Shown piece by piece: positions 13,990 to 63,900 of a stretch of 64,000 nucleotides of DNA (position 1 is its first letter; the number at the start of each line of letters is the position of its first letter). The stretch covers positions 8,420,198-8,484,197 of the forward strand of contig CM000151.3 in assembly GCA_000004695.1 (NCBI GenBank), in the 5' to 3' direction. This DNA is from Dictyostelium discoideum. Taxonomy: Eukaryota. Under the pieces are notes generated by a model. It was not told the DNA's origin and made no database searches. It saw only the letters and a list, made by a program, of their open reading frames with translations. The translations under genes and the position numbers were made by a program.

Positions 13990-19123
<5,134 letters not shown>

Positions 19124-21777: not shown

Positions 21778-22122
21778 TATAAAAGTTGATGGAAATGTTT
21801 CTTTCTCAATCAATTAAATGCTTCTTTAGAACCTTTTGATTCTAAATTTGCTTATTATCAAAAAAACAATAAAAAATTGGTTTTAAAAATATATCGGAAA
21901 TAATTGAAAAAGAAAAAAAAGTGACGCTTTAAAATTTGAGTAAAAAACGGTTATGAAAAAAAATCTTTTATTTTTTTTTTTTGAATTTTCGTCACCAATT
22001 ACCAAACGACGTTTTTGTTTTTTTTTTATATTTAAGTGGTATCGAAAAAAAAAAAAAAAAACAAAAAAAAAACCATCAAAACATTAAAAAAGTTCATTTA
22101 AACAGAAAGAAATAATAAAAAA

Positions 22123-22522
22123 ATGAAATTATTAAACTCACTAATTTTATTAGTTTTAACTTGTTTGGTATCGTCAATCAATACTCAATTCATTTCCATT
22201 CAAAAGTATGATTTTAGTGGAAATTGTAAAAATAGCTCAGATTCAGCAAGTAGTTTTGAAGCATCAAGCGAATCAGCAGCAATTTGTATGCAAAATGATT
22301 TATTATCTGGTATAGTTACAAATGAGGGTGTTTGCTTAATATTTAATGAAGTTCCAACTACATTCATTATATCAACAAAAGGTGATTACATTGTTCGTTC
22401 AATTTATGATATAAACGATAATAATTGTCAAGGTAATTATTTTATTTTTTACTTTTTTATTTTATTTCTATTATTGACTACTGATTTTGTAGGTGGCAGT
22501 GAGGCAAATACTAATAATAAAA

Positions 22523-22594
<72 letters not shown>

Positions 22595-22996
22595 TTTACC
22601 ACAGGTGGTATTATTGAAAATAAAGCAATTGAAATTGATGAATGTTTTGTTGAGTGTGCTGATGATTACCATGGAAGTACATATTTATTTTCAACTGAAA
22701 CATCTTTAAATTACCCATCTAATACCTTCATGGAAATATCTTACAATGGTGAATGTGATGGACAATGGAAAACTAGTTTCAATTATCTTCAATATTACAT
22801 TGTAAATAAATGTAATGTTGCACATGAAATTGAAACTCATACCTTTTCTGTAGGTTGTAATAGTACTTCTTCTTGGGTTAGTGAATACGCTGGTGAAGTT
22901 TGTACCGTTGAACCAACTGTTACCACATCTTATCCAATAGTTGATAATTGTGGAGATTTAGATAATTCCAACTTTATTGATTATTGTAACATTTAA
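22123..22996 (+). CDS. Secreted Cys-rich protein, tandem paralog 1 of 3
   Basis: Exon 1 is 22123..22432 and exon 2 is 22605..22996; the phase-1 junction reconstitutes CQ-G-GIIENK. Signal peptide MKLLNSLILLVLTCLVSSINTQ. About 12 Cys at conserved spacing. The intron ends with a (TTA)n run then ttttaccacag. Confidence 0.7.
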
Positions 22997-23294
22997 ATTA
23001 TTAAAGTCTTTTAAAAATAAAAATTGTTGGTTAATTATTTTTTTTTAATTTTTTTTTTTTTTTTATTATTATTAACCAAAAAAATATATAGTGTTCCAAA
23101 TTTTTACATTCTTTATTTTTTTTTATTTTTTTTTTGGGGTTTAATTAAAAAAAAAATAACTCAAAATTTTAAGTGAAAATGTTAAAAAAAAAAAATATCT
23201 CTTTTTTTTAATTTTTTAGTTTTGTCAAAAAAAAAAAAAAACCATCAAAACATTAAAAAAGTTGATTTAAAAAAAAGAAAGAAATAATAAAAAA

Positions 23295-23731
23295 ATGAAA
23301 TTATTAAACTCACTAATTTTATTAGTTTTAACTTGTTTGGTATCGTCAATCAATACTCAATTCATTTCCATTCAAAAGTATGATTTTAGTGGAAATTGTA
23401 AAAATAGTTCAGATTCAGCAAGTAGTTTTGAAGCATCAAGCGAATCAGCAGCAATTTGTATGCAAAATGATTTATTATCTGGTATAGTTACAAATGAGGG
23501 TGTTTGCTTAATATTTAATGAAATCCCAACTACATTCCTTATATCATCAAATGGTGATTACGTTGTTAGTACAATTTATGATAAAGACGATCTTAATTGT
23601 CAAGGTAATTATTTTATTTTTTTATTTTTTTAATATTTTATTCCTATAATTAATTGACTACTGATTTTGTTGGTGAAGTTGTGCAAATACTTATAGTATA
23701 TATTTTATATTTTTAAATTTATTAATAAATA

Positions 23732-23791
<60 letters not shown>

Positions 23792-24192
23792 TTACCACAG
23801 GTAATATTATTGGAAATAGAGCAATTAAAATTGGTGAATGTTTTGTTGAGTGTGCTGATGATTACCACGGAAGTACATATTTATTTTCAACTGAAACATC
23901 TTTCAATTACCCATCTAATACCTACATTGAAATATCTTACAATGGCGAATGTGATGGACAATGGAAAACTGGTTTTAACTATCTTCAATATTACATTGTC
24001 AATAAATGTAATGTTGCACATGAAATTGAAACTCATACCTTTTCTGTAGGTTGTAATAGTACTTCTTCTTGGGTTAGTGAATACGCTGGTGAAATTTGTA
24101 CCGTTCGACCAAGTATTACTTATACTAACCAAATCGGTGATAATTGTGGTGGTTTTAATAGTGCCAACTTTATTGATTATTGTAACATTTAA
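23295..24192 (+). CDS. Secreted Cys-rich protein, tandem paralog 2 of 3
   Basis: Exon 1 is 23295..23604 and exon 2 is 23801..24192. Exon 1 and ~60 bp of 5' flank are nearly identical to paralog 1. Exon 2 diverges at the C-terminus (RPSITYTNQIGDNCGGFNSANFIDYCNI). Confidence 0.7.
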
Positions 24193-24243
24193 ATTATTAA
24201 AGTTTCAAAAATAAAATAAAATTATTGGTTTGTACTTTCTTTG

Positions 24244-24298
<55 letters not shown>

Positions 24299-24578
24299 CT
24301 GAAAATCCTATTCTACAACACAAAGCATGCTTTGCTTTGAATTAAAAAGTAATTGAATTTTATAATTATTTTTTTAAAAAAAAAATATATATAAATTTCT
24401 CGAACATGTCATAAATAAATTCTAGAAAAATTAAATGATATTTTGAGATTTTTTAAATTTTTATAAAAACATTTAGATATTTTTTATAATGATATCACTT
24501 TAAAACAAATTTTCATTTTTTTTTAAAAAATGAATTGTAAAAGTCAATAAAATTTTTTTTTTTTTTTCTTCAACACAT

Positions 24579-24587
24579 AAAATAAAA

Positions 24588-24668
<81 letters not shown>

Positions 24669-24692
24669 AAATAAATAAATAAATAAATACAT
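24579..24692. repeat. (AAAT)n microsatellite, ~28 units
   Basis: Perfect aaat run between paralogs 2 and 3, directly upstream of the paralog 3 ATG. Confidence 0.9.
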
Positions 24693-24721
24693 AAAGAAAA
24701 AAAGAAAAAAAAAAAAAAAAA

Positions 24722-25569
24722 ATGAAATTATTATATTCATTAATTTTATTAGTACTAACATGTTTGATTTCATTAACTCAAACTCAATACATCTCCATAC
24801 AAAATTATCAATTCAGTGGGAATTGTAATAGATTTATCAATGGTAGCAGTAGTGATTCAACAGAAACTTGTGTTCAAGATGATTTATTGTCTGGTCAAGT
24901 GACAAGTGAGGGTTTTTGTTTGATTTTTAATGAAGATATAAGCACATTAACAATATCACCAAATGGTAATTCAATTATTCAATCAATTTATTCACCAACT
25001 GATTATAATTGCCAAGGTAATTATTTTATTATATAATTTTTTTTTTTTTTTTTTTTTTTAATTTTTTTTGTGTTTTTTTTTCTATTTTAATTTTTTGTGT
25101 TCTATTTTTAGTTTTGAATAATTATTTTTATTATTTTTTATTTATTTTTTTATTTAATTATATTATTATTATAGGTGGTATTATTAAAGAGAAAGAACAT
25201 GAAATTGGTGAATGTTTTTCTCATTGTGTTGATGAAAACCATGGAAAAGTATATTCATTATCTACACAGTCATCAATTAGTTTCCCATCGAATACTTTTG
25301 TTGAAGTGTTTTATTCTGGTGAATGCAATGGGGATTGGAAAAATAATTTCAATTATCTTGATTATTTTGTGATTAATAAATGTAATATTGCATATGCTTT
25401 TGAAAGTCTTACCTATACTTTCAATTGTAATAGTACTTCTTCCTGGATGAGTGAGTTCAATGATGAAAATTGCACCGTTAAACCAGCTGGTATTCAAGTT
25501 GATCCTTTAGCAAATAGTTGTAGTAATGCATCCAATAATAAAAACCATTTAGATATTTGTAATGTTTAA
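24722..25569 (+). CDS. Secreted Cys-rich protein, tandem paralog 3 of 3 (more divergent)
   Basis: Exon 1 is 24722..25016 and exon 2 is 25175..25569, with the same phase-1 intron position after CQG. Signal peptide MKLLYSLILLVLTCLISLTQTQ. The Cys framework is conserved (ECF.HC...GEC.G.WK...NKCN.A...C.V). Confidence 0.7.
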
Positions 25570-28378: not shown

Positions 28379-30238
28379 TTAATGAGTTTTTGGAATTACT
28401 TTTGAAACTTTTTCAATTAAAAGTTTGACAACTTCAGGTTCAGCTAAAGTTGAAATATCACCTAATTGTTCAGCAGAAGATTCATGACAACCAATTTTTC
28501 TAAGAATTCTTCTCATAATTTTACCACTACGAGTTTTTGGAAGTGAAGGTGTTATAACAATTACATCAGGTGTTGCAAATGGACCAATTACATTTCTAAC
28601 TTCTTTTTTTAACATCATAATAACATTTGATTCATCCTCTTGATAACCTTCTTTGAGTGTACAAAATGCTAAAATACCTTGACCTTTGATATCATGAGGA
28701 TAACCAACAACGGCAGCCTCTGCACAAATTGAACAACCAACGAGGGCACTCTCTAATTCAGCAGTACCTAATCTATGACCACTAACATTGATAACATCAT
28801 CTACTCTACCTTCGATCCAATAATAACCATCAGAGTCAAGTTTTACACCATCACCAGTGAAATAGTGACCTTTATATTGAGTCATATAAGTTTGAAGATA
28901 ACGACCATGAGAACGATAAACTGAACGAGCAATACCTGGCCAAGGTTTAGAGATTGCCAATACACCAGAAATTTCTTTACAACCATTGATATCGGGATTA
29001 ATATATAAACGTTCACCAGTTTTTGAGTCTAAAACTTGTAATTCTATACCAAAGAAAGGTTTAGTTGCTGAACCAGGTTTAGTTGAAGTAACACCAGGTA
29101 ATGGAGTAATTAAATGACCACCACTTTCAGTTTGCCAATAGGTATCAACGATTGCACAACGACCTTCACCAACGTTTGTATTGAACCATCTCCAGGCTTC
29201 AGGATTAATTGGTTCACCGACTGAACCTAAAACTCTAAGGGATGATTTATCGGATTGTTGAGTAAATGATATTGGGAATTTCATTAGTGAACGAATTGCA
29301 GTTGGTGCTGTATAGAATTGAGTGATTTTATGACGTTGTACCATTTCCCAATAACGTGCTGGAGTTGGATAAAGAGGAGTACCCTCAAAGATAAAAGTTG
29401 TTGCACCATTTGCCAATGGACCATAAACGATATAACTATGACCTGTAATCCAACCAACATCAGCCATACAAGCATAAACATCGGAATCGTGATAATCGAA
29501 AACATAACGATGAGTCATTGCGGCGTATAGTAGATAACCAGCCTGAGTATGTACTAAACCCTTTGGTGTACCAGTGCTACCACTTGTGTAAAGGATAAAT
29601 AAGGGATCTTCTGAATCTAACCAAACTGGTGGACAATATGGACGATGATCCAACATTGCTTCATCTGCCCAAATATCAATTGATGGATTAAATGTAATTG
29701 TTGGTCTACCTGTATTTTTAAAAACAAGTACATGTTGTACCAATTTGCAATGTTGAACAACTTGATCAATCTTTTCTTTTAGTGGTATATATCTACCACC
29801 TCTTAAACCTTCATCAGCCGTTATGATCACTCTACATTTTGCATCATGAACACGTGAAACAATGGATTCATAACCAAATCCTGCAAAAATAACTGAATGA
29901 ATTGCTCCAATTCTAGCGCATGCTAACATTGAATAAATGGCGGTTGGTGTGTTTGGTAGATAGATCGCTACCGTATCTCCTTTACCAACGCCAAGTGATA
30001 TCAAAAGATTTGATAATCTACAAACCTCTTCAAACATCTCTCTATATGTAACTTTTTTAACCATTGTTTCTTCATCACCTTCAAATAGTATTGCAACTTT
30101 ATCTGCATTCTCTTTTAAATGTCTATCGATACAATTATATGAAACATTAATTTTACCATTTAAAAACCATGAAATATCACCTTTTTCGAATGATCTAAAA
30201 TAATTATTAAAAAATAATTGAAAATTAAAAAAATTTTT

Positions 30239-30276
<38 letters not shown>

Positions 30277-30505
30277 CTTTTAATAATTACCCATGTTGAA
30301 CAGTTGTATAATCAGAAAACCAAGTTAAAAATTCTTTAGCTTTTTTATCCCAAAATTGATTTGGTGATTCAATACTTTCTTTATACATTTCATTATATTG
30401 TTCTACTGATGATATATGACATTTTGTACTAAAAGAAGGTGGTGGATATAGTAATTTTTGTTGTTCTTCTTGTACTGTTTCTTTTTCTGTAATTTGCATG
30501 TTCAA
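28379..30505 (-). CDS. acsA: Acetyl-CoA synthetase (AMP-forming)
   Basis: Exon 1 is 30291..30505 (phase 2, donor GTAATT) and exon 2 is 28379..30194 (acceptor ttttag). AMP-binding signature YTSGSTGTPKGLVHT. The ACS-specific stretch WITGHSYIVYGPLANGATTFIFEGTPLYP and ...PKTRSGKIMRRILRKI are both present. The exon 1 N-terminus ...YNEMYKESIESPNQFWDKKAKEFLTWF is conserved in ACS. Confidence 0.9.
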
Positions 30506-38963: not shown

Positions 38964-40599
38964 TTAATAAAAGAATCTACCAATTGTACCATCTGGATAA
39001 ATAAAAGGGAATTTAATGAAAATAAAAATTGTAATAAAATTAATTAAAATAAAATATAAAATATCTAAAACTATTAATTGATTAACTCTTTTAAAATTTA
39101 ATTTCTTTCCTCGCATAGTTTTACTTTGTATGATGAAATTATTATAATAATGAAATTGATTTAATTGGAATAAAAAGAAAGGTACAATATAATATCTTGG
39201 TTCAACCAATGGACTTGGTAGTAAAACCATTGCAGTTGATAGGAAATAGAAAATACACCAAAGTTTTGATCTATTCTCGGAGAGTACTTTCCAAATGAAC
39301 CAAATACTATAACAATAGAATGGAATTGGTAAATAACGGCCAATGCTATACTTTTCAATAAATCTATTCCAAATATAAAATGTATAATGTCTATTATCAG
39401 ATAACAAAAATAAATGAGTATATGTAAATTTCCAAATCATTAAAACCATACCAATAATTATCACTATTAAATATTTAAAATTAATATTTTTTAAAAATTC
39501 AATTGGATCATATAGAAGAATCTTCTTTTCATTTTCATTTTGATTTCCTTCATTTTGATTTCCAAATCTCTTTAATAATGATGATATTAAAATTGATGGT
39601 AATGAAAATAACATTGTTATTAATGAAAAATAAAATAATTGTGATACATGAAATGATGATTCATGATTACTCTTATCACCAACTACAATACTACCATTAT
39701 AATAAAGAAATATTAAAAATAATATTCCAACCATTATAAATCCAATGAATTTCTTAATTATTAATAATAAATTGAAAATTGAAAATTTAATAAATTCTAT
39801 AATATCTTTAATTAAATTTAACTCTTTAAATATATAATTTTGTTTTTCTTTATTTTCTTCATATAATTTTAAAATATTATTAATTGTAATAAAAAATACC
39901 CAAATTATATTTGTTTGTCTAATCGTAACACTAATTAATCCAAACTTTTATATAGAATTAAAAATAAAAAAAATAAATTAAAAAATTAATATATATATAA
40001 ATTTTGTTTTTTTTTTTTTTTTTAAATATAAGAAAATAATTACAAATGAAGATAAATTAAATTTATTTTTTAAAGAAAATAATAATGTTAAAAATATTGA
40101 ACAAGTTGAAACTACATCTGTATAAAATAAAAAGTGAAAAAAATAAAAAATAGGGAATATTGATAAATGGATTGTTCTTAAAATGATTGTATTATTAATT
40201 GAATTTTTATTTTCTATCACTTCTTTTTGATTAATTTTTAATGATGATAATGATGATGCTGGTGATAATAATAGATTATAGGTTGAAATTTTCAAAATTT
40301 CATAAATTGAAAAAAAAGTTATTATCAAACAAAATACATTGAATGATCTTAATACAACTACTGAACAATGTGATATCCATATACCATCACCAATACCAAA
40401 CATTGATAATATATTTGAATAAATTAATGCTAAAATATATAAACCTGGTAATGTCGTTATTTTATTATCCCATTCTTTAAATTTAAATTCACAATATTTA
40501 ATAGTTTGTGGTATATGAAATATTTCATCCTTTTATTTTTAATTTAAATTAAGAAAATATTAATATTTAAAAAAAAAAAAGATTTTCATTCATGTATTG

Positions 40600-40635
<36 letters not shown>

Positions 40636-40781
40636 TAATTTCAAAAACAAACACTTACAACATATGGTTCAATTTGATTGGAATTTATAATTTTTAGAAT
40701 AGACAATGATATTATCATTATAATACCAATTACTTTACAAATTTTAAGTACATCATTTTGAATGCTTTGTAATTTATTCAT
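38964..40781 (-). CDS. alg10: Alpha-1,2-glucosyltransferase ALG10 (DIE2)
   Basis: Exon 1 is 40659..40781 (donor GTAAGT), exon 2 is 40044..40529 (donor GTAATT), and exon 3 is 38964..39944; all junctions are phase 0. The product is collinear with human ALG10: DEIFHIPQ...ITTLPGLY, RQTNIIW, VGDKSNHESSFHVSQLFYF, and the hallmark DNRHYTFYIWNR. Confidence 0.85.
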
Positions 40782-40797
40782 CTTTTTAAAAAATTTA

Positions 40798-40841
<44 letters not shown>

Positions 40842-40846
40842 AAACT

Positions 40847-40878
<32 letters not shown>

Positions 40879-41308
40879 CAAAAATTAAATTTCTAAAATA
40901 ATAATTTTGATAATATCCATATTGTTATATTTTTTTCATCAGTCAACTAGTAATTATCCTTCTAAAATCATATATAAAGAGAATTGTTGACAATGGTTCA
41001 AAGGTAAATGGGCAGCACAAAGAGAATTTTCCATTCATATAAAGAAAGAAGATTCAACTAAAATTACCGAGACAATGGGTGAATCAACTAATGAGGAGAG
41101 TATATAATTAAAGATTTATTGAACCTGAAGTTGATAAAATTTTTCAATTAAACACGTTGAAATATCACCTAATTTTTCACCAAAAGATCACATTTTCAAA
41201 TAATTTTAAAAAAATAAAATAAAAATAATATTAATAAATTTCAAAAGTTCAAAGAATGAATAATTTATAAATAAATATTTATTATTATCAAGATTAAAAT
41301 TTTATTTA

Positions 41309-42976
41309 TTAAGCTTGCATTTGAGCAGGTGGTAATTTACTTGAATTAATTTCGTTATTTTTTTCATTTTCTAATTCTTCAATTGTTTGTTCTAGTTGAT
41401 CTTGTGGAATACTAATATCTTCAGTTGTATTTTTTGAAGTTCCCAATGATTTTGGTAAATTAAAGTATAAAAATATTGTACAAAATACACCAATTCCACC
41501 AAAAATCCAAAACATTGTTGATTGACCTAAATATTCTACGACTACCAAGAAAAAGAATGATAATATTGTATTAAAAGTCCATTGACATGCATTTATTACT
41601 GGTGCACCAATACTTTTACTGTCTTCTGGTAATATTTCATTTATAACAAACCAAAACTTTTTTTTTATTAAAATAATAAATAATAAATAATAGAAAATAA
41701 TAATTAATAATTAATAAAGATTTAAAAATTAAATAATTTAAATACTTACCAATGTTCCAATTGATGCTTCAAATGCACCAACGAAAATAAATAAAAATAC
41801 AATTGAAGACCATCCTTTTGCACTACCAGTTAATACAACAAAGAACAAAGCTATTAATAAATCACAAGTTGTCATTACAATTGATCCAGTAAAAAGTAAA
41901 ACTCTTCTTCCAAGTTTATCAACTAAAAATATAGCAATTAATGTTGTTAATACATTCCATACTTGTAATGCAACTGATGCAATCTCTGGATTATTAATTC
42001 CTGCATCTTTAAAAATTGTATTTGAAAAATACATAAATGCATTTATACCTTTTAAAATTGTTTGGAAAAAAAAAAAAAAAAATTATAAAAATTAAAATAA
42101 ATTTTTTAAAAAAAAAAAAAGTATATATATAAATAATTACCAGTTAATTGAGCCAAAGTTGCTAATAATACACCAACTAACATTGGTTTTCTCATTTTTT
42201 TTGAAAAAATAATTGTAAATTTAGTACCTTGGTTATTTTGTGGTTGAGTTTCAATTTGGTTTTCATTGCTTTCTTGATTTGTTGTTGTTGTTGTTTTTGC
42301 TGATTTCTTTGCAAGAAAAACAGGAGATTCTGCAATTACAAACCAAACAAAAAACAATAAACCTCCTGGAATTGATCCCAAGCAAAACATTAATCTCCAA
42401 TTACCTTTAATAACATATGCTAAAATATTTGCAATTAAAATACCAACTGTAATTGATATCTTTATTTTTTTTAAAAAAAAAAAAAAAAAAATTAATAATT
42501 AATAAAAAAATAATTAATTTATGTTTAAATTTAAAAATAATAACTACTTGAAAAAATGAACCAAATATTCCTCTTCTTTTAATTGGTACCATTTCGGCAA
42601 CCATTAATGGGCAAACACTTGATGAAGAGCCAACACCTAAACCATGGATAAATCTTAAAATACAAATAGTTGCGACATTTTCACCTAAACCTGATCCAAT
42701 TGCACCACAAATACATGTTAAAGCAGTAAATAGTAATAATGGTTTTCTACCAAATTTATTTGCAGCAAATCCACCTGCAAATGATCCAATTAAAGCACCA
42801 ACTAAAATACTACAAACAATTACTCCTTTTATTACTGTTGATGTATTAAATTTAATTGCAATTGGGTCCAATGTACCAACAATAATACCAGTAGCATACC
42901 CAAATACTAATCCACCCAAACAACTTTGAGTTACAATTAACCATGATTTATTAGAAATATTGTCTAAATATTTCAT
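41309..42976 (-). CDS. MFS sugar porter family transporter
   Basis: Four exons on the minus strand: 42548..42976, 42141..42459, 41750..42048 and 41309..41656, giving 464 aa. Sugar-porter signatures GRKPLLL, LRFIHGLGVGSSS, PESPR-like AESPVFL, QLTG|INAFMYFSNTIFKDAG and EILPEDSKSIGAPV are present. The exon 1 donor is a weak GTAGTT, so exon 1 is the least certain. Confidence 0.7.
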
Positions 42977-43662
42977 TTTTATTATTATCAAAAAAAAAAA
43001 TGTTATAATTAATTATTAAAAAAAAAAAAAAAAAAAATGTTTTTAATGTAAACACTATATTTTTTTTGATATGTGATTATTATTATTTTTTATTTTTTTT
43101 TATTGTTATTATTTATTTATTACTGTTATTTTGTGTGTGTTGTGCCAAAGTTGTAAATAAAAGGAAAAAAAAAAAAAAAATTCATAGCTGCTATGAAATT
43201 TAAAAAAAGTAATATAGTGTGTGTGTGGGAAATTTTGTAAAATTATTCTATTTTTAATCCAACACAACCCCCATTTTTGAAATTGAAAACACGATTTGAA
43301 TAAAATTTAAATTTAATATTTGTTATTATTTTTTTTTTTTTTTTTTTTTTCTTTTTTTCAGGAAGCCTTTATTTATTAATAAAAAGGATATAAAATTATA
43401 TTTACCACAAATAATTTTTTTTTTGTATTCTTTTTTTTGATTTTTGTTTTCCTTTTTTTTCTTTTTTTTTTCTTTTTTTAATTATTAATAATTAATAAAA
43501 AGAATAATAAATTATATTACCCTAATATTTTTTTTCCCTTTTTTTTTTTTTTTTCCTTTTTTTTCATACTATGTGAATATTTTCTTTTTTTTTGACATAA
43601 TTATGTGTCTTTTTTGATTTTTTTTTTTTTGATTTTTTTTTTTTTTTTTTTAATTTTTTTGT

Positions 43663-53033: not shown

Positions 53034-55809
53034 AAGATAAAAAAAAAAAAAAAAAAAAATAAAAAAAAAAAAAAAATTAATTTTTCGTGCGAGAAATTAA
53101 TTTTCAAACTATTTGTGCATAAAATTATTTAAAATTTGTTTTAATTTAAAAAAAAATAATAAAAAAATAACTTTTTCTTTTTTAATCAAATTTTAAATTG
53201 TTTACTTAATCGCACACTTTTCCTATTTTGAATTTTTAAACCTCAAGGTTATCATAATAATATAAAAAATCAAGCAAAAATTTGGAAATTGTTTTTTTTT
53301 TATTATAATAAAGGTTAGTTCATTTGAACAGTTTTGTTTACTAAAAAAATTATTGTTAAAAAAAATTATTGCTAAAAAAAAAATAAAAATAAAATTATAA
53401 AAATAAAAAAATAAAAAATTATAATTTTCGAAGTTCATAGATATTTTGGTATGACAGGACAAACTTGTAAAAATTAAAAAAATTTGGGTGAAAAAAAAAA
53501 TATCAAATAAATTTTCTTTTTTTTTTTTTTTTTAATTTTATTTTTAGTAATCAAAAGATCTTTTAATCGATTTGGAGTTATAAAAAATGAATAATGTTAC
53601 AATTAATTTAGTTTTATTTACTATTTTTTTTTTTAAAAGATTTAAAAAAAAAATTTCCCCCTATTTTTAATATTGTTTTTTTAAAAGATTTAAAAAAAAA
53701 AACTCCCCTATTTTTAATATTATTTTGTTAAAAGATTTAAAAAAAAAACTTTTTTACTTTTTTTATTTTATTATTAATATTTTGAAACCAAAAAAATAAA
53801 AAATTAATTTAAAAATAATAAATTTTTGATTTTTTGGTTTAGTTCTATTAACGTCATACTTATAATTATCTGTTCGTATGTTTATTTTAAAGATTCGAAT
53901 CTTTAATTCTTGCTATCCTTTTAACATCTTTCACTTAAAAATAAATACATTGGACCTTTCTGTGAATAATTGAATTAATTCTGAAAAAAAAAAGTTATTT
54001 TGAAAAAGATCGAGTTATCCCGGAAAAGATCAATCTTTTCGCTAAAAATTTTTCATTGGCCATATTATTTTTTTTTTTTAATTTTTTTCATTTATTCACA
54101 ATTAAAATAAAAAATATAAAAATAAATAAATAAAATAAATAGTATGATTGACAAAAAAAATCAAAAATACCCCGGTAGGATTTATTTTTTATATGTAGTT
54201 TTTTTTTTTTGAAGTTCCTTTTTTTTTTTTGAAGTTCATTTTTTTTTATATTTTCTTTATTTCTCTATAAATACAACCAAATTTAATTCTACGATAGGTC
54301 TTAACAAATATTGTTTAATATTATTTAAAATTTTTGTTTTAAATAATGTGTTTTATTAAAAAAAAAAAAAAACATGTGAAAAGTGAAAAATTTTTCAAAA
54401 AAAAATAAACTTTTTTCGAAATAACTGAATTTATTCCGGGATAACTCGATCTTTTTTAAAATATGCTGAGTTAATTATAATTAATTCAATTATCCACTGA
54501 TAGGTCCATTATCATTTTTGTTAGAGACTCAAAACTAATTTAATTTTAAAGTTAGTATGAGCCCCAACAACTTTACAAATTTGCGCGTCTCCATGTAAAA
54601 ATATTTCATTTAATTTTAATTTTTATTTTTTAATTTTTTATTTTTTAAGTCGAAAAATAAAAAATTAAATTAAATTAAAATTTAAAAATAATAAAAATTC
54701 TGATTTTCGGTTTAGTTTCATAACGACCTTACTTTAATATTATGTATGTTTATTTTAAGATACGAGTCTTTCTCTATTTCTATCCCTAACAATATAAATA
54801 ATAACGATTGATGAAGATTGATGAAGATTGATGAAGATTGATGAAGATTGATGAAGATTGATGTAGATTGATATAGGATTAGATAGATTGGAATAGTGCC
54901 AATGACTTTTATTTTAACATAAGATGGAAATATTAAATAAATAATTAGATACAATCTTTATATAATTGCCTATACAATGACACCTCATGATGAAGAAGTC
55001 GACTCTTCAGATTAGAGGAATAACAGTAGTATTTAAAACAAAATAAAAATGCATTACAATGGCCCTTCTGTTTGCAAGATTAACGCTGTACTGCTTAGGC
55101 GGTACAACGACACTTCCTACTCACATTGTAAACATGCATCTTTTATAAAGTAATATAAAATAAGATTGTATCAATTAATTTAATAATATTCTAAATATAA
55201 ACAATGACACCTCAAACAGAGGAATAACTGTGTTGTTATATAAAAACAATGACACCTCAAACAGAGGAATAACTGTTATATAAAAGCAATGACACCTCAA
55301 ACAGAGGAATAACGGTATTGTAATAATATTAAGACACCACAATATATAATATTAGTGGAATAACAGTTAAACAAAGACACCACAATATAAATTATTAGTG
55401 GAATAACAATTAAACAAAGACACCACAGTATAAATTATTAGTGGAATAACAGTTAAACAAAGACACCACAATATAAATTATTAGTGGAATAACAGTTAAA
55501 CAAAGACACCACAGTATAAATTATTAGTGGAATAACAGTTATATAGATGTATTATTAATAAAAATAATTTAAGATAATATTTATTATCAATCAAATAAAG
55601 ACACCACAATAAAAATATATTAGTGGGATAACAGTTATAATATATTAATAATAATATCAATTATTTAATTTTAAAAATTAAAATAAATAAATTAAATAAA
55701 TTAAATTAATTTAATTAAATAAATTAAATAAATTAAATTAAATATATTAAATTAAATTAAATAAATTAAATTATATAATTTAAAATTTAAAATAAATTGT
55801 TGGTGAAAG

Positions 55810-56764
55810 TAATGACATCAACTACTACTCTTTCAAAGATAGCCATCCGTAAAGCCAAAGTGTCTTCCACCGCCAAATGTGCCGCTGAAGTGACCTCTGC
55901 CTCCGATGAAGCTATTTCTGTCCAAGCCAAACCAAAAAAGACCCTTCATCCCACTGAAGACGATGATTAACTTTATACTACCGAAAGCACGGACCTATCC
56001 GAGGCTGAAGTCAGAGAGAGAGCCTAAGAATTCAAAGACAACTCCATTGAAGCTAAAACCATTGATGCTTTTAAAAAATGATACCACTGCCTTCATCTTC
56101 ATGAATCTCTTTACCATCTACTTCCCCCTGTCTCCTCCCCCCAACCCAACCTTGATGACCATTATGGACAATGTACTACATCAAATGAATTATTCCATTT
56201 GCTTCAACCTGACCAATATGAATCAGTGAAGAACAACGATAATTTGAAGGTGTAACTTTGAGGAAGCTTATCCACCGTAACTTTAGACCCAAGACTTTGG
56301 TTCCCGTCAAAACTGACTACGAAGCTGCTAAAATTAAAGTGGTCTAAGCCATTAGCCATTGTAACAACCACTCAGCCTAATATGTTAAAAAAAACATCGA
56401 AGCAAATATGAGTTACAACAATGTAATTAATCCGATGTATCTCATCCATGGTACTGCTGATGTTCAATTAGATTATCTAAGATCAATTTTAGATAATAAT
56501 ATCCTTGCTTTGTTAAAGATGGTTATACCAGACTGGTTACAAACTGATGTTGCAATCAAGCTCAACCCTCAAACCGATATCACCGAGTGTCGTGAAGCTA
56601 TCACCGAGTTGGTTCTTTTCAATACTGATAAGTTTTCTAGAAGAAGATCTTCCGATTCGGCATCGAATACTGATGAGAAGTTTCCAATGAAAAATAATCA
56701 TGCTGTTCCAAATCATAACTCTCAAAGCAGGAATCACTTAGAGCTGAAATATAACCAAAGGTAA
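55810..56764 (+). pseudogene. Degenerate copy of the repeat-unit ORF (multiple stops and frameshifts)
   Basis: The translation MTSTTTLSKIAIRKAKVSSTAKCAAEVTSASDEA... is interrupted by stops. It resumes in other frames (ORF 56408..56764 ...NPMYLIHGTADVQLDYLRSILDNNILALLKMVIPDWLQTDVAIKLNPQTDITECREAITELV...) that are homologous to copy 2. Confidence 0.6.
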
Positions 56765-58185
56765 AAGATAATAAAATGGTAAATATCAACAAGATAAGAA
56801 ACAGTTACATTGTTTATCGTCATAGCAAAGGCTATTGTCTCAATTGTAGTCGTTCAAATTACTCTACATCTTTATGTAATGCCGATACTGTCAAGGTCAA
56901 AGTCAATCCATCAAGTCCATAAGCCAAAAAGCAACAATGACTCGATGAAGGTGATGAGTACAAGTCTAAGATTTTAAATAAAAATTATAAAATTTCACAA
57001 TATCATCACCCCGAGAAAATGGATGGTAAAGAGATTCATGAAGATGAGAGCAGTGGCAGCATTTTTTTAAAGCATCAATGGTTTTAGCTTCAATGGAGTT
57101 GTCTTTGACTTCTTTGGCTCTTTCTACCTGACTTCGAGTTTGGATATGTCAGTTCTTACAGTTGTATAAATTTCTTCATCGTCTCCAATGGGATGAAGAG
57201 TCTTTTTTGATTTCACTTGAACTTGGGTAGCATCATCCGAGGCGAATGCACTTCAGCAGCACATTTGGTGGTGGAAGACACTTTGGCTTTACGAATGGCT
57301 TTTTTTGAAAGAGTAGTTGTTCTAGACTCAAAACTAAATTAATTTAAAGTTAGTATGAGCTCAACAACGTAACAAATTCGCGCATCTCCATGTAAAAATA
57401 TTTCATTTAATTTTAATTTTTTATTTTTTCATTTGAAAAATAAAAAATTAAATTAAATAAAATAAAATTAAATTAAAATTTAAAAAAATAATAAAAATTC
57501 TGATTTTCGGTTTAGTTTTCATAACGCCCTTACTTTTAATTATCTCTTTTATATATGTTTACTTTTATGATATTAGTCTTTCACTCTTTCTATCCTTCAT
57601 ATTAAAAAACATTACTTTAAAGATTGGACAGTTTGATTAAAGATTGAACAAATGTGACAATGGATTGAAGATTAGTGTGAGTGAATTTTACACTTTTTTT
57701 TCTAATTTTAACATAAAACAAATACATTAAAACAAATAATTAGATACAATCCTTATATTTCGTATACAATGGCACCTCATGATGAAGAAGTCGACTCTTC
57801 AGATTAGAGGAATAACAGTAGTATTTAAACAAAATAAAAATGCATTACAATGGCCCTTCAGTTTGCAAGATTAACGCTGTACTGCTTAGGCGGTACAACG
57901 ACACTTCTTACTCACATTATAAACATGCATCTTTTATAAAGTAATATAAAATAAGATTGTATCAATTAATTTAATAATAATGCTCAAATACAAAGACACC
58001 ACAATATAAATTATTAGTGGAATAACAGTTAACATATATTAATACTTATATTAATTATTTAATTAAAAATTAAATTAAATTAAATTAAATAAATTAAATT
58101 AAATTATAAAATTAAATTATAAAAATTAAATTATAAAATTAAATTATATTTAATAAATTTTATATATAATTGTTGGTGAAAGTCA

Positions 58186-59227
58186 TGTCATCAACTACTA
58201 CTCCTTCAAAGAAAGCCATCCGTAAAGCCAAAGTGTCTTCCACCGCCAAACGTGCCGCTGAAGTGACAACCGCCTCCGATGATGCTATTACTGTTCAAGT
58301 AAAATCAAAAAAGACTCTTCGTCCCACTGAAGTCGATGATGAAATTTATTCAACTGAAAGCACTGATGTATCCGACGTCGAAGTCAGAGAGAAAGTGCCA
58401 AAGAAATCAAAGACCAATTCCATTGAAGCTAAAACCATTGACGCTTTAAAAAATGCTGCCACTGCTGTCATCTTCATGAATCTCTTTACCATCCACTGCT
58501 CCCAGAATGGTGTTGAACCAACCTTGAAGACCATTATGGACAATGGTGCTGCATCAAATGAATTATTTCAATTGCTTCAACCTACCCACAATGAATCAGT
58601 TAAGAACATTGAAGAAGGTGGAGCATTGAAGAAGCTAATACACCGTAACTTTATATCCAAGACTTTGGTTCCATTCAAAACTGACTACGAAGCTGCCAAC
58701 ACTAAAGTAGTAGAAGCTATTAACCATCGTAACTGCTACTCAGCCCAAGATGTTATAAAAAACATCGAAGCCATTATGAGTTACCACAATGTAATTAATC
58801 CGGTGTATCTAATCCATGGTACTGCTGAAGTTCAATTAGAGTATCTAAGATCAATTTTAGATAATAATATCATTGCTTTGTTAAAGATGGTCGTACCAGA
58901 CTGGTTACAAACTGATTAATCAAACTCAACACTCAAACCGATATCACCGAGTGTCGTGAAGCCTTCACCGAGTTGGTTCTTAACAATGCTGATAAGTTCT
59001 CGAGAAGAAGACCTTCCGATTCCGCATCGAATACTGATGAGAAGTTTCCATTAAAAAAGAATCATGCTACTCCAAATCATAACTCTAATAACAGGAATTC
59101 CTTTGATGCACAAGCTGATAAGATTAGAGCTGCAATATTACCCGAAATAAGAAAAGACTCTAAGGTAGACCTCAAAAAGATAAGAAGCAGCACAGCGGCG
59201 AAAATCAACACTTTAAAGCACCTTTAA
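58186..59227 (+). pseudogene. More intact copy of the repeat-unit ORF, ~350 aa, with one in-frame stop / small deletion at 58917
   Basis: The translation MSSTTTPSKKAIRKAKVSS...VINPVYLIHGTAEVQLEYLRSILDNNIIALLKMVVPDWLQTD stops with TAA where copy 1 reads through. The remainder is ORF 58973..59227 (...ADKFSRRRPSDSASNTDEKFP...KIRAAILPEIRKDSKVDLKKIRSSTAAKINTLKHL*). No RT, integrase, transposase or endonuclease motifs recognised. Confidence 0.55.
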
Positions 59228-63374: not shown

Positions 63375-63900
63375 AATATTTTTGTTACCTATCGATTGTC
63401 AATAGCAAGTATCGAGCTTAGAGCCCATTTTAAAAATTTAATTTTTTTTTTTTCCAAAATTTTTCCAAGTCAAAAAATTTTTCCCAAATGAGCAATTTGA
63501 CATTCCCAAATAAAAATTAAAAGTTTTTTATAATGTTACTATGGATAATATTAATGAAATTAAGTTACCTACCGATTGTCAATAGCAAGTATTGAGTGTA
63601 GAACCCATTTTAAAAATTTGAAATTTTTTTTTTTTTTGAATTTTTTCTTAGTTAAAAATTTTCCCAAATGAGCAATTTGAAATTCCCAAATAAAAATTAA
63701 AAGTTTTTTATAATGTTACTATGTATAATATTAATGAAATTAAGTTATCTATCGATTTACAATAGTAACTATAGGTTAATTAATCGATTTTAAAATTTTA
63801 ATTTTTCAAAATTTTCAATTAAATTAACAACTTTTTTAAGGTATAGTTACTCTTTAGAAAATATGTTACTATGTATAATATTAATAAAATTACATTATAT
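63375..63900. repeat. Tandem ~190-bp repeats (about 2.7 units) abutting an assembly gap
   Basis: Units begin tacctatcgattgtcaatagcaagtatcgag...ttttcccaaatgagcaatttga.attcccaaataaaaattaaaagttttttataatgttactatg.ataatattaatgaaattaagtta. The N run at 63901..64000 follows. Confidence 0.8.

Follow-up and report, generated by a model that had tools for sequence, protein, structure and literature searches.

A spacer of 527 nt separates a sugar-transporter gene from ALG10 in Dictyostelium discoideum, and 246 nt of this spacer (40943-41188) are occupied by a patch with a GC content of 0.30-0.33 (31%), against 0.03-0.12 in its flanks (roughly 10% for the spacer). The question raised by this locus is where the patch came from, by what route it was put together and whether it serves any function. 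All positions are those of the window, i.e., the whole stretch of 64,000 nucleotides that was analysed. According to the original prediction, the site is a mosaic of fragments copied from a polymerase gene and from the 3' end of an acetyl-CoA synthetase (ACS) gene, which arose by template switching or retro-copying and does not represent a functional exon.

The names given to the four genes concerned were borne out by Pfam, with DNA_pol_A for the polymerase, AMP-binding and AMP-binding_C for ACS, Sugar_tr for the transporter (minus strand, 41738-42991) and DIE2_ALG10 for ALG10 (38964-40403). The site had been placed just downstream of the transporter 3' end and upstream of ALG10, and this placement agreed with the gene calls of a second assembly, in which the transporter stop codon is located at 41309-41311 and the ALG10 ATG at 40781, both on the minus strand. 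The patch begins 120 nt past the transporter stop codon, and 162 nt lie between its other end and the ALG10 ATG. Both donors are located on the same chromosome as the patch, the polymerase donor at a distance of 24 kb and the ACS donor at a distance of 12.6 kb, and the order of the pieces in the patch (polymerase, ACS piece B, ACS piece C) is the same as in the sources. Both were identified within the 64-kb window, and a closer donor elsewhere in the genome, e.g., an ACS paralogue, is conceivable. The features used below are as follows.

16732-16907, plus strand: donor 1, an intact coding segment of the polymerase gene (ORF 13990-17511, 1173 aa), outside any Pfam domain.
28406-28481, minus strand: donor 2, ACS coding sequence 27-102 nt ahead of the stop codon.
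40784-40898, no strand: A-run/T-run inverted repeat, with 57-nt arms that are 82% complementary and 1 nt apart, 45 nt left of the patch.
40943-41103, plus strand: polymerase piece, a copy of 16732-16907 by local alignment, with the polymerase sense on the plus strand.
41104-41119, no strand: linker of 16 nt, AT-rich, ATAATTAAAGATTTAT.
41120 to about 41153, plus strand: ACS piece B, copied in reverse complement from about 28408-28442, with the ACS sense on the plus strand.
41153-41158, plus strand: B/C junction, CACGTT, corresponding to the 6-nt donor microhomology AAAGTT.
41159-41188, plus strand: ACS piece C, copied from 28452-28481 without inversion relative to the window, with the ACS antisense on the plus strand.

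The patch was found to be base-for-base identical in the independent assembly GCA_054883475.1 (contig JBTAPE010000033.1). This assembly matched the window over 25884-47066 at 99.7% identity, with 7 mismatches and 16 gap openings, and the gap openings that were checked in the spacer were A/T homopolymer length differences. Across 40700-41320 the only differences between the two assemblies are one SNP (40762) and the lengths of the A-run and the T-run. Since an independent assembly that differs elsewhere carries the identical patch, the patch is not an assembly artefact. A chimera artefact is ruled out as well, because a chimera would match its source at 100% identity and the patch is 88-95% identical.

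The significance of each match was estimated by comparing Smith-Waterman scores with those of 100 dinucleotide-preserving shuffles on both strands of the whole window. For the polymerase piece, a score of 222 was obtained against a shuffle null of 30.7 +/- 2.8 (z=69; reached by 0/100 shuffles). Of 161 aligned pairs, 153 are identical and 8 are substitutions, so that the identity, previously put at about 90%, is revised to 95.0% over aligned pairs, or 87% with gap columns counted. The match between 40981-41100 and 16783-16912 proposed for this piece is correct but too short: the copy starts 38 nt further left, and the true left boundary of the patch, 40943, is 32 nt left of the start at 40975 that had been given for the mosaic. 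The deletion of about 15 bp noticed earlier was recovered as 15 nt net (12 + 3), the missing source bases being distributed over one 12-nt gap and three 1-nt gaps within 12 nt. The patch and the polymerase gene share 34 exact 21-mers, in runs of 41 and 33 nt. The copied portion amounts to 176 nt of a gene of more than 5 kb, whose next exon (17573-19123) is DNA_pol_A (Pfam, E=1e-91); DNA polymerase theta is the closest solved structure for this catalytic exon (E=6e-75).

In the reading frame of the polymerase, the piece carries a TGG>TGA change at the codon matching source 16780-16782, and its translation is STSNYPSKIIYKENC*QWFKGKWAAQREFSIHIKKEDSTKITETMGESTNEES, the residues after the stop beginning with QWFKGKW. 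Five of the eight substitutions fall at third codon positions, and the deletions sum to in-frame amounts (3 + 12 nt). These two features hint that the source gene, being under constraint, acquired part of the divergence, with too few events for significance; in that case the patch would preserve an older allele of the polymerase gene. The template-switch reading given below is compatible with such a pattern but does not predict it.

For the ACS part, 41156-41188 aligned with 28449-28481 on the same strand at 30/33 identical positions (z=10.2; 0/100 shuffles), in agreement with the proposed match of 41150-41185 to the ACS 3' end. Within the window, the 19-mer GTTGAAATATCACCTAATT in piece C is present only at the patch and at the ACS source, and the minus strand of this piece encodes ..GEKLGDIST. 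Piece B was not significant alone in the window-wide search, its score being reached by 16/100 shuffles. Its best match in the search space of 128 kb is located 7 nt from the source of piece C, and in comparison with the coding neighbourhood of this source its score was reached by 0.04% of 4851 real 38-mers and by 0/2069 GC-matched 38-mers. The 14-mer TGAACCTGAAGTTG in piece B is unique to the patch and the ACS source sites, and the piece encodes EPEVDKIFQLN where the source encodes EPEVVKLLIEK. No exact 21-mer is common to the patch and ACS. Pairwise alignment of the patch against both sources gave identities of 95% (polymerase) and 88% (ACS), above the level of about 60% named as background in the original prediction; together with the z values and the unique 14-mer and 19-mer, this confirmed the mosaic of polymerase and ACS fragments.

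Pieces B and C are neighbours in the source, and the patch keeps their order and flips B. The stretch 41116-41150 had been said to resemble the neighbour of the ACS match in inverted orientation, which turned out to be more than a loose resemblance: it forms part of one predicted strand-switch product. The donor locus holds a 6-nt pair in both orientations, AACTTT at 28406-28411 and AAAGTT at 28446-28451, with 34 nt between them. The product of a single switch, i.e., the reverse complement of 28406-28442 followed by 28452-28481, is 67 nt long and aligns end to end with 41120-41188 (69 nt) at 59/67 identical positions, with two 1-nt gaps; the junction contains no filler. When random junction pairs 20-120 nt apart in the coding DNA of the window were used as the null, the chance of a microhomology of at least 6 nt was 0.0006 for exact breakpoints and about 0.03 with a slack of +/-3 nt per breakpoint.

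About 70 nt of the 2-kb ACS gene are covered, and the copy ends 27 nt short of the ACS stop codon. A reading of 41153-41232 as ACS sense sequence running into the stop codon and the 3'UTR was rejected, the direct match of piece C (30/33) being far stronger. The A-rich tail right of the patch was likewise rejected as ACS 3'UTR; it is low-complexity, and the spacer at 11219-11263 matches it better. An extension of piece C to the right past 41188 is marginal, with 4% of real AT-rich 37-mers scoring equally. A quasi-palindrome in the native ACS 3' end was considered as a driver and was not retained, since only a small palindrome was seen inside B, which is unexceptional in comparison with other ACS segments. 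The best window-wide match of the linker was not significant (25/100 shuffles were as good), and its derivation from ACS upstream of B or from the polymerase gene downstream of the copied segment was rejected, with 1828/2000 and 716/2000 shuffles, respectively, giving an equal match. The other parts of the spacer (40880-40945, 41100-41122 and 41186-41308) gave no significant or non-low-complexity match elsewhere in the window.

Donor 2 codes for the conserved motif LGDISTLAEPEVVKLLIE; the counterpart of this motif in an alignment with bacterial acetyl-CoA synthetases is LGDTSTLADPGVVEKLLE. The ACS source retains the conserved LGDxSTLAxPxVV..LL, and the patch departs from these conserved residues. 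The patch is a derived non-coding copy because it carries a stop codon and deletions and has lost conserved ACS residues, with the polymerase source remaining an intact ORF. Both donors are intact, and the transfer is thus of the copy-paste type. The original statement that the patch is not a functional exon holds: in addition to the TGA in the polymerase frame and the loss of the conserved ACS C-terminal motif, no ORF of more than 31 aa was found in any frame of the patch. An Rfam search of the patch at E<=10 gave no match, and its folding showed no excess over shuffles on either strand (MFE z +0.38 and +0.96). The patch covers only a small part of each parent gene, which sets it apart from processed and unprocessed whole-gene pseudogenes. 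Its substitutions, stop codon and indels look like unconstrained decay, and the patch is probably a non-coding relic that is decaying neutrally.

Masked self-BLAST of the 64-kb window detected no further dispersed short copies, only ordinary tandem gene duplications, and the patch is a singular event. The ACS part is nominally more diverged (12%) than the polymerase part (5%), i.e., 8/67 against 8/161 (Fisher p=0.085), and the two divergences may be compatible with the same age and one event.

Taking these results together, we consider it fairly probable that the patch is one complex templated insertion, made by microhomology-mediated switching between DNA templates and decaying neutrally since then. 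Template switching is favoured because the ACS pieces join at a 6-nt inverted microhomology and both donors are in cis within 25 kb; the two routes named in the original prediction therefore fared differently, with template switching supported and retro-copying disfavoured. For donors drawn at random from the D. discoideum genome (about 34 Mb), the probability that both would lie within 25 kb is about 2e-6. The copies with their boundaries, the derived state of the patch, the junction microhomology and the lack of coding or RNA-structure signal are direct observations; a single event, DNA templates and a break or a stalled fork as the trigger are what we infer. The fragments have source lengths of 176, about 37 and about 30 nt, plus 16 unassigned nt.

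The proposed course of the event is as follows. Break repair or restart of a stalled fork would have taken place in the spacer, during which the synthesis left its proper template. A segment of 176 nt would then have been copied from the gene of the Pol-theta-like polymerase 24 kb off, and 16 nt of AT-rich sequence would have been added or copied after it. Next, the sense strand at the ACS 3' end, 12.6 kb off, would have been copied for about 37 nt until the nascent 3' end (...AAAGTT, reached at 28406) re-annealed to the complementary strand at 28446-28451, 40 nt back. From 28452 at least 30 nt more would have been copied in the opposite orientation before the spacer was rejoined, and the stop codon, the deletions and the substitutions (5-12%) would have been acquired during the later decay of the copy. 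The synthesis may have been of the MMBIR/FoSTeS type or, alternatively, displaced fragments may have been captured by end joining; the sequence fits either. The A-run/T-run inverted repeat, the length of which differs between the two assemblies, could be a hairpin- or cruciform-forming fragile site and may have triggered the event.

The closest known parallel is provided by the templated insertions at double-strand breaks in yeast (PMC11724301), which are of the copy-paste type and have median sizes of 88-187 bp. Complex insertions account for 5-7% of them, the commonest pattern being two inverted fragments from one locus. Such fragments either adjoin or overlap, their junctions lie 2-119 bp apart (rad27 mutants, about 2-20 bp; rtt105 mutants, 30-119 bp) and the microhomology at which they join has a median of 6 bp (range 2-11); the authors credited them to microhomology-mediated template switching (PMC11724301). 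The patch resembles the yeast insertions in its intact donors, in the tens to hundreds of bp copied, in having several fragments per insertion and in its microhomology of 6 nt (yeast median 6), with 34 nt between the inverted microhomologies. It differs in being a natural germline event in an amoeba, 5-12% diverged, whereas the yeast insertions were recovered from induced breaks in repair mutants, and in having both donors within 25 kb in cis; the donors in yeast are spread over the whole genome, with a preference for fragile sites (PMC11724301). Microhomology switching, nearby templates on the same chromosome and short inverted copies are also shared with the MMBIR/FoSTeS products (MMB-TIs; Osia et al. 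2021, PMC8421209) and with short template-switch mutations as described by the four-point model (Loytynoja and Goldman 2017, PMC5453318). In the latter, the templates are tens to hundreds of bp off and the replacement is in place (PMC5453318); in contrast, the templates of the patch are 12.6 and 24 kb off, and the patch appears to be a net insertion of 246 nt.

Among the other explanations, a tandem duplication of 16732-40942 (24 kb), followed by a micro-inversion and by two large deletions of about 11.5 and 12.5 kb that spared only two scraps, predicts the left junction exactly as it is seen (40942 followed by the copy of 16732) and would leave pieces colinear with the source and in the same orientation, except for B. 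Duplications of at least 15 kb are common and unstable in laboratory stocks of D. discoideum (Bloomfield et al. 2008, PMC2643946), and other tandem duplications exist in the window. Nevertheless, at least four independent events would be required, one of which, the microhomology strand switch, would have to land by chance inside an ACS remnant of 74 nt. The spacer shows no further detectable trace of the 24-kb interval, and scraps are not left behind when tandem copies are lost by homologous recombination. Duplications and deletions are reported to arise spontaneously at very low rates in D. discoideum (PMC9849192). The segmental duplications described in the same organism, which are at least 15 kb in size and arise readily, are also large, recent and nearly identical (PMC2643946), unlike the diverged three-piece patch of 246 nt with its strand-switch junction. 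An origin by tandem duplication is considered to be rather unlikely.

Compared with template switching on DNA, it is unlikely that the patch was derived from RNA, i.e., that a reverse transcriptase began on ACS mRNA, moved to the polymerase mRNA as its next template and thereby made a chimeric cDNA with which a break was patched. This reading is consistent with both donors being exonic and presumably transcribed, and with the polymerase piece and piece B being sense on the same strand with polymerase 5' of ACS, as expected for such a switch. There is also a human precedent: the class 2 templated sequence insertion polymorphisms, argued to be break patches made from reverse-transcribed RNA, have exonic, transcribed donors and carry neither target-site duplications nor poly(A) (Onozawa and Aplan 2016, PMC5110952). 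In the patch, likewise, no direct repeat of at least 5 bp was found to bracket 40943-41188 as a target-site duplication, only AT-rich low-complexity repeats being present, and no poly(A) tract was found where the sense copies end (41103 and about 41152). For an insertion derived from mRNA, however, the lack of a poly(A) tail and of a target-site duplication also counts against the reading, and the ACS copy, which ends 27 nt before the stop codon, is without 3'UTR. A LINE-type retro-copy (class 1 templated sequence insertion) was rejected on the same two hallmarks. Moreover, piece C, the best-conserved ACS piece, is antisense, so that both strands would be needed unless the cDNA snapped back, and there would be no reason for landing within 25 kb of both source genes. 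Unlike in the class 2 insertions (PMC5110952), both ACS strands are represented and the donors are in cis, and DNA templates are favoured over RNA for these two reasons. No intron falls within either donor segment, the nearest ones being at 17512-17572 and 30065-30286. The window holds no tRNA gene, which is the usual target of the Dictyostelium TRE retroelements. Capture by a Pack-MULE or a Helitron was also rejected, as no terminal inverted repeats or target-site duplication bracket the patch and the A-run/T-run repeat, the only strong inverted repeat, is wholly on one side.

A functional non-coding element, either a transcribed seed of siRNAs (e.g., by read-through from the transporter) or part of the ALG10 promoter, is very improbable. 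In its favour, the patch has the 34 exact 21-mers in common with the polymerase gene, the polymerase piece is antisense to both genes flanking the patch, and the distance to the ALG10 ATG is only 162 nt; in addition, Dictyostelium miRNAs are mostly intergenic and less AT-rich than their surroundings (PMC11014262). These points are countered by the lack of an Rfam match and of folding beyond shuffles on either strand, by the lack of an exact 21-mer shared with ACS, and by the stop codon, indels and substitutions that resemble unconstrained decay. AATAAA is present at +1, +5 and +28 nt after the transporter stop codon, ahead of the patch at +123, and the supplements of one miRNA survey do not contain the distinctive core of the patch. 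The inverted ACS pieces come from different segments and are unable to pair together; a precursor hairpin of an miRNA or siRNA formed by inverted duplication was accordingly rejected, with no stable hairpin found. It is barely conceivable that a minus-strand transcript of the patch, made by read-through from the transporter gene or from a start of its own and antisense to the polymerase mRNA over 161 nt (with the 34 perfect 21-mers), would feed RdRP and Dicer and silence the polymerase gene in trans. If this were true, the scar of a templated insertion would control a polymerase from the class responsible for scars of this kind.

Finally, chance low-complexity similarity or an assembly or cloning chimera, for which only the very AT-rich genome and the window-wide non-significance of piece B alone could be put forward, is refuted by the z values of 69 and 10.2 against dinucleotide-preserving shuffles, by the unique shared 14-mer and 19-mer, and by an identity below the 100% of a chimera in a patch that an independent assembly carries unchanged.

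With template switching on DNA as the preferred reading, the patch is a well-resolved, naturally occurring member of a class of mutational scars that is already known, and not a new type of element; it is otherwise an ordinary genomic scar with no sign of function. Most of what is known of complex templated insertions with inverted donor pairs comes from cancer genomes and from breaks induced in yeast mutants. Clean cases that became fixed in nature and still show a readable strand-switch junction are uncommon, and no Dictyostelium example of such an insertion was found in the literature searched. The patch suggests that insertions of this type can become fixed even where the genome is compact and gene-dense and mutates at a low rate, and that they can double the length of a promoter/terminator spacer. 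The patch could serve as a dated neutral marker, the decay of which would be usable for an estimate of AT-biased neutral substitution, and it may have preserved how a fast-evolving stretch of the polymerase gene looked ancestrally.

A metagenome scan for a 32-mer common to the source and the patch gave 0 matches. Homologue searches were run against a protein database apparently without dictyostelids, in which the polymerase segment had no match and ALG10 had no dictyostelid match, the top one being 37% identical. The 64-kb window carries other tandem duplications, and no other single-exon gene is located within 10 kb of the patch.

The polymerase-derived part of the patch, a mosaic of copied gene fragments between the sugar-transporter gene and ALG10, was compared with its source (16732-16907 against 40943-41103). 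The totals of the indels were in-frame (3 nt and 12 nt), and five of the eight substitutions affected the third base of a codon, as read in the source frame. As judged from this alignment, in which the events are too few for significance, the polymerase gene, which is under constraint, may itself have acquired some of these differences, and the patch would then represent a fossil of an older allele.

Comparison of the donor polymerase (17573-19123, and also 13990-17511) with solved structures gave DNA polymerase theta as the nearest one (E=6e-75). The exon upstream of the catalytic exon encodes more than 1100 amino acids, mostly of low complexity (poly-N). The scanned parts of the gene showed no helicase domain. 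Enzymes of the DNA polymerase theta class are known to make templated insertions in the course of end joining, and thus the templated-insertion scar holds a fragment of the gene of such an enzyme. The presence of this fragment in the scar is probably a coincidence.

No dictyostelid match was obtained from the large protein search database, even with ALG10 or the window's own polymerase as the query, and the negative results of protein searches for this window are to be read in the light of this absence. The exact-match contig index contained one annotated Dictyostelium assembly, GCA_054883475.1. Between the window and this assembly, the sole base substitution in the spacer region was found at 40762 (about 14844 in L001, the locus of the second assembly), by which codon 7 of ALG10 is altered, being ATT (Ile) in the window and AAT (Asn) in GCA_054883475.1. 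The following feature was located immediately upstream of the ALG10 ATG and at a distance of 45 nt from the patch:

40784-40898, A-run/T-run inverted repeat with 57-nt arms (82% complementary) spaced by 1 nt

In GCA_054883475.1, the A-run and the T-run of this repeat were shorter than those in the window by 10 nt and 5 nt, respectively. The repeat may be regarded as a candidate hairpin-forming fragile site.

On the minus strand, an AATAAA hexamer (41115-41120) was formed by the linker, for which no significant donor match was found, and the first base of piece B, the inverted copy from the acetyl-CoA synthetase 3' end. It lies 191 nt downstream of the stop codon of the sugar-transporter gene, for which the insertion would provide a potential additional poly(A) signal.

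Elsewhere in the window, repeats were recorded as follows:

22058-25492, tandem array of three paralogues from the CfaA_B_C (counting-factor-associated protein) family
54518-59106, tandem duplication, approximately 2.2 kb, at 81-84% identity
63384-63806, direct repeat near the window end (63384-63628 against 63564-63806, offset about 180 nt, 85% identity)

CfaA_B_C copies 1 and 2 shared 89% identity over 1 kb, and copy 3 shared 70-72% identity with them. For the ORFs in 54518-59106, no Pfam match was found. The duplication contained two inverted pairs of segments of about 300 nt (55820-56118 against 57321-57022, and 57020-57321 against 58495-58193), together with 43-nt tandem repeats in series at 55325-55499.
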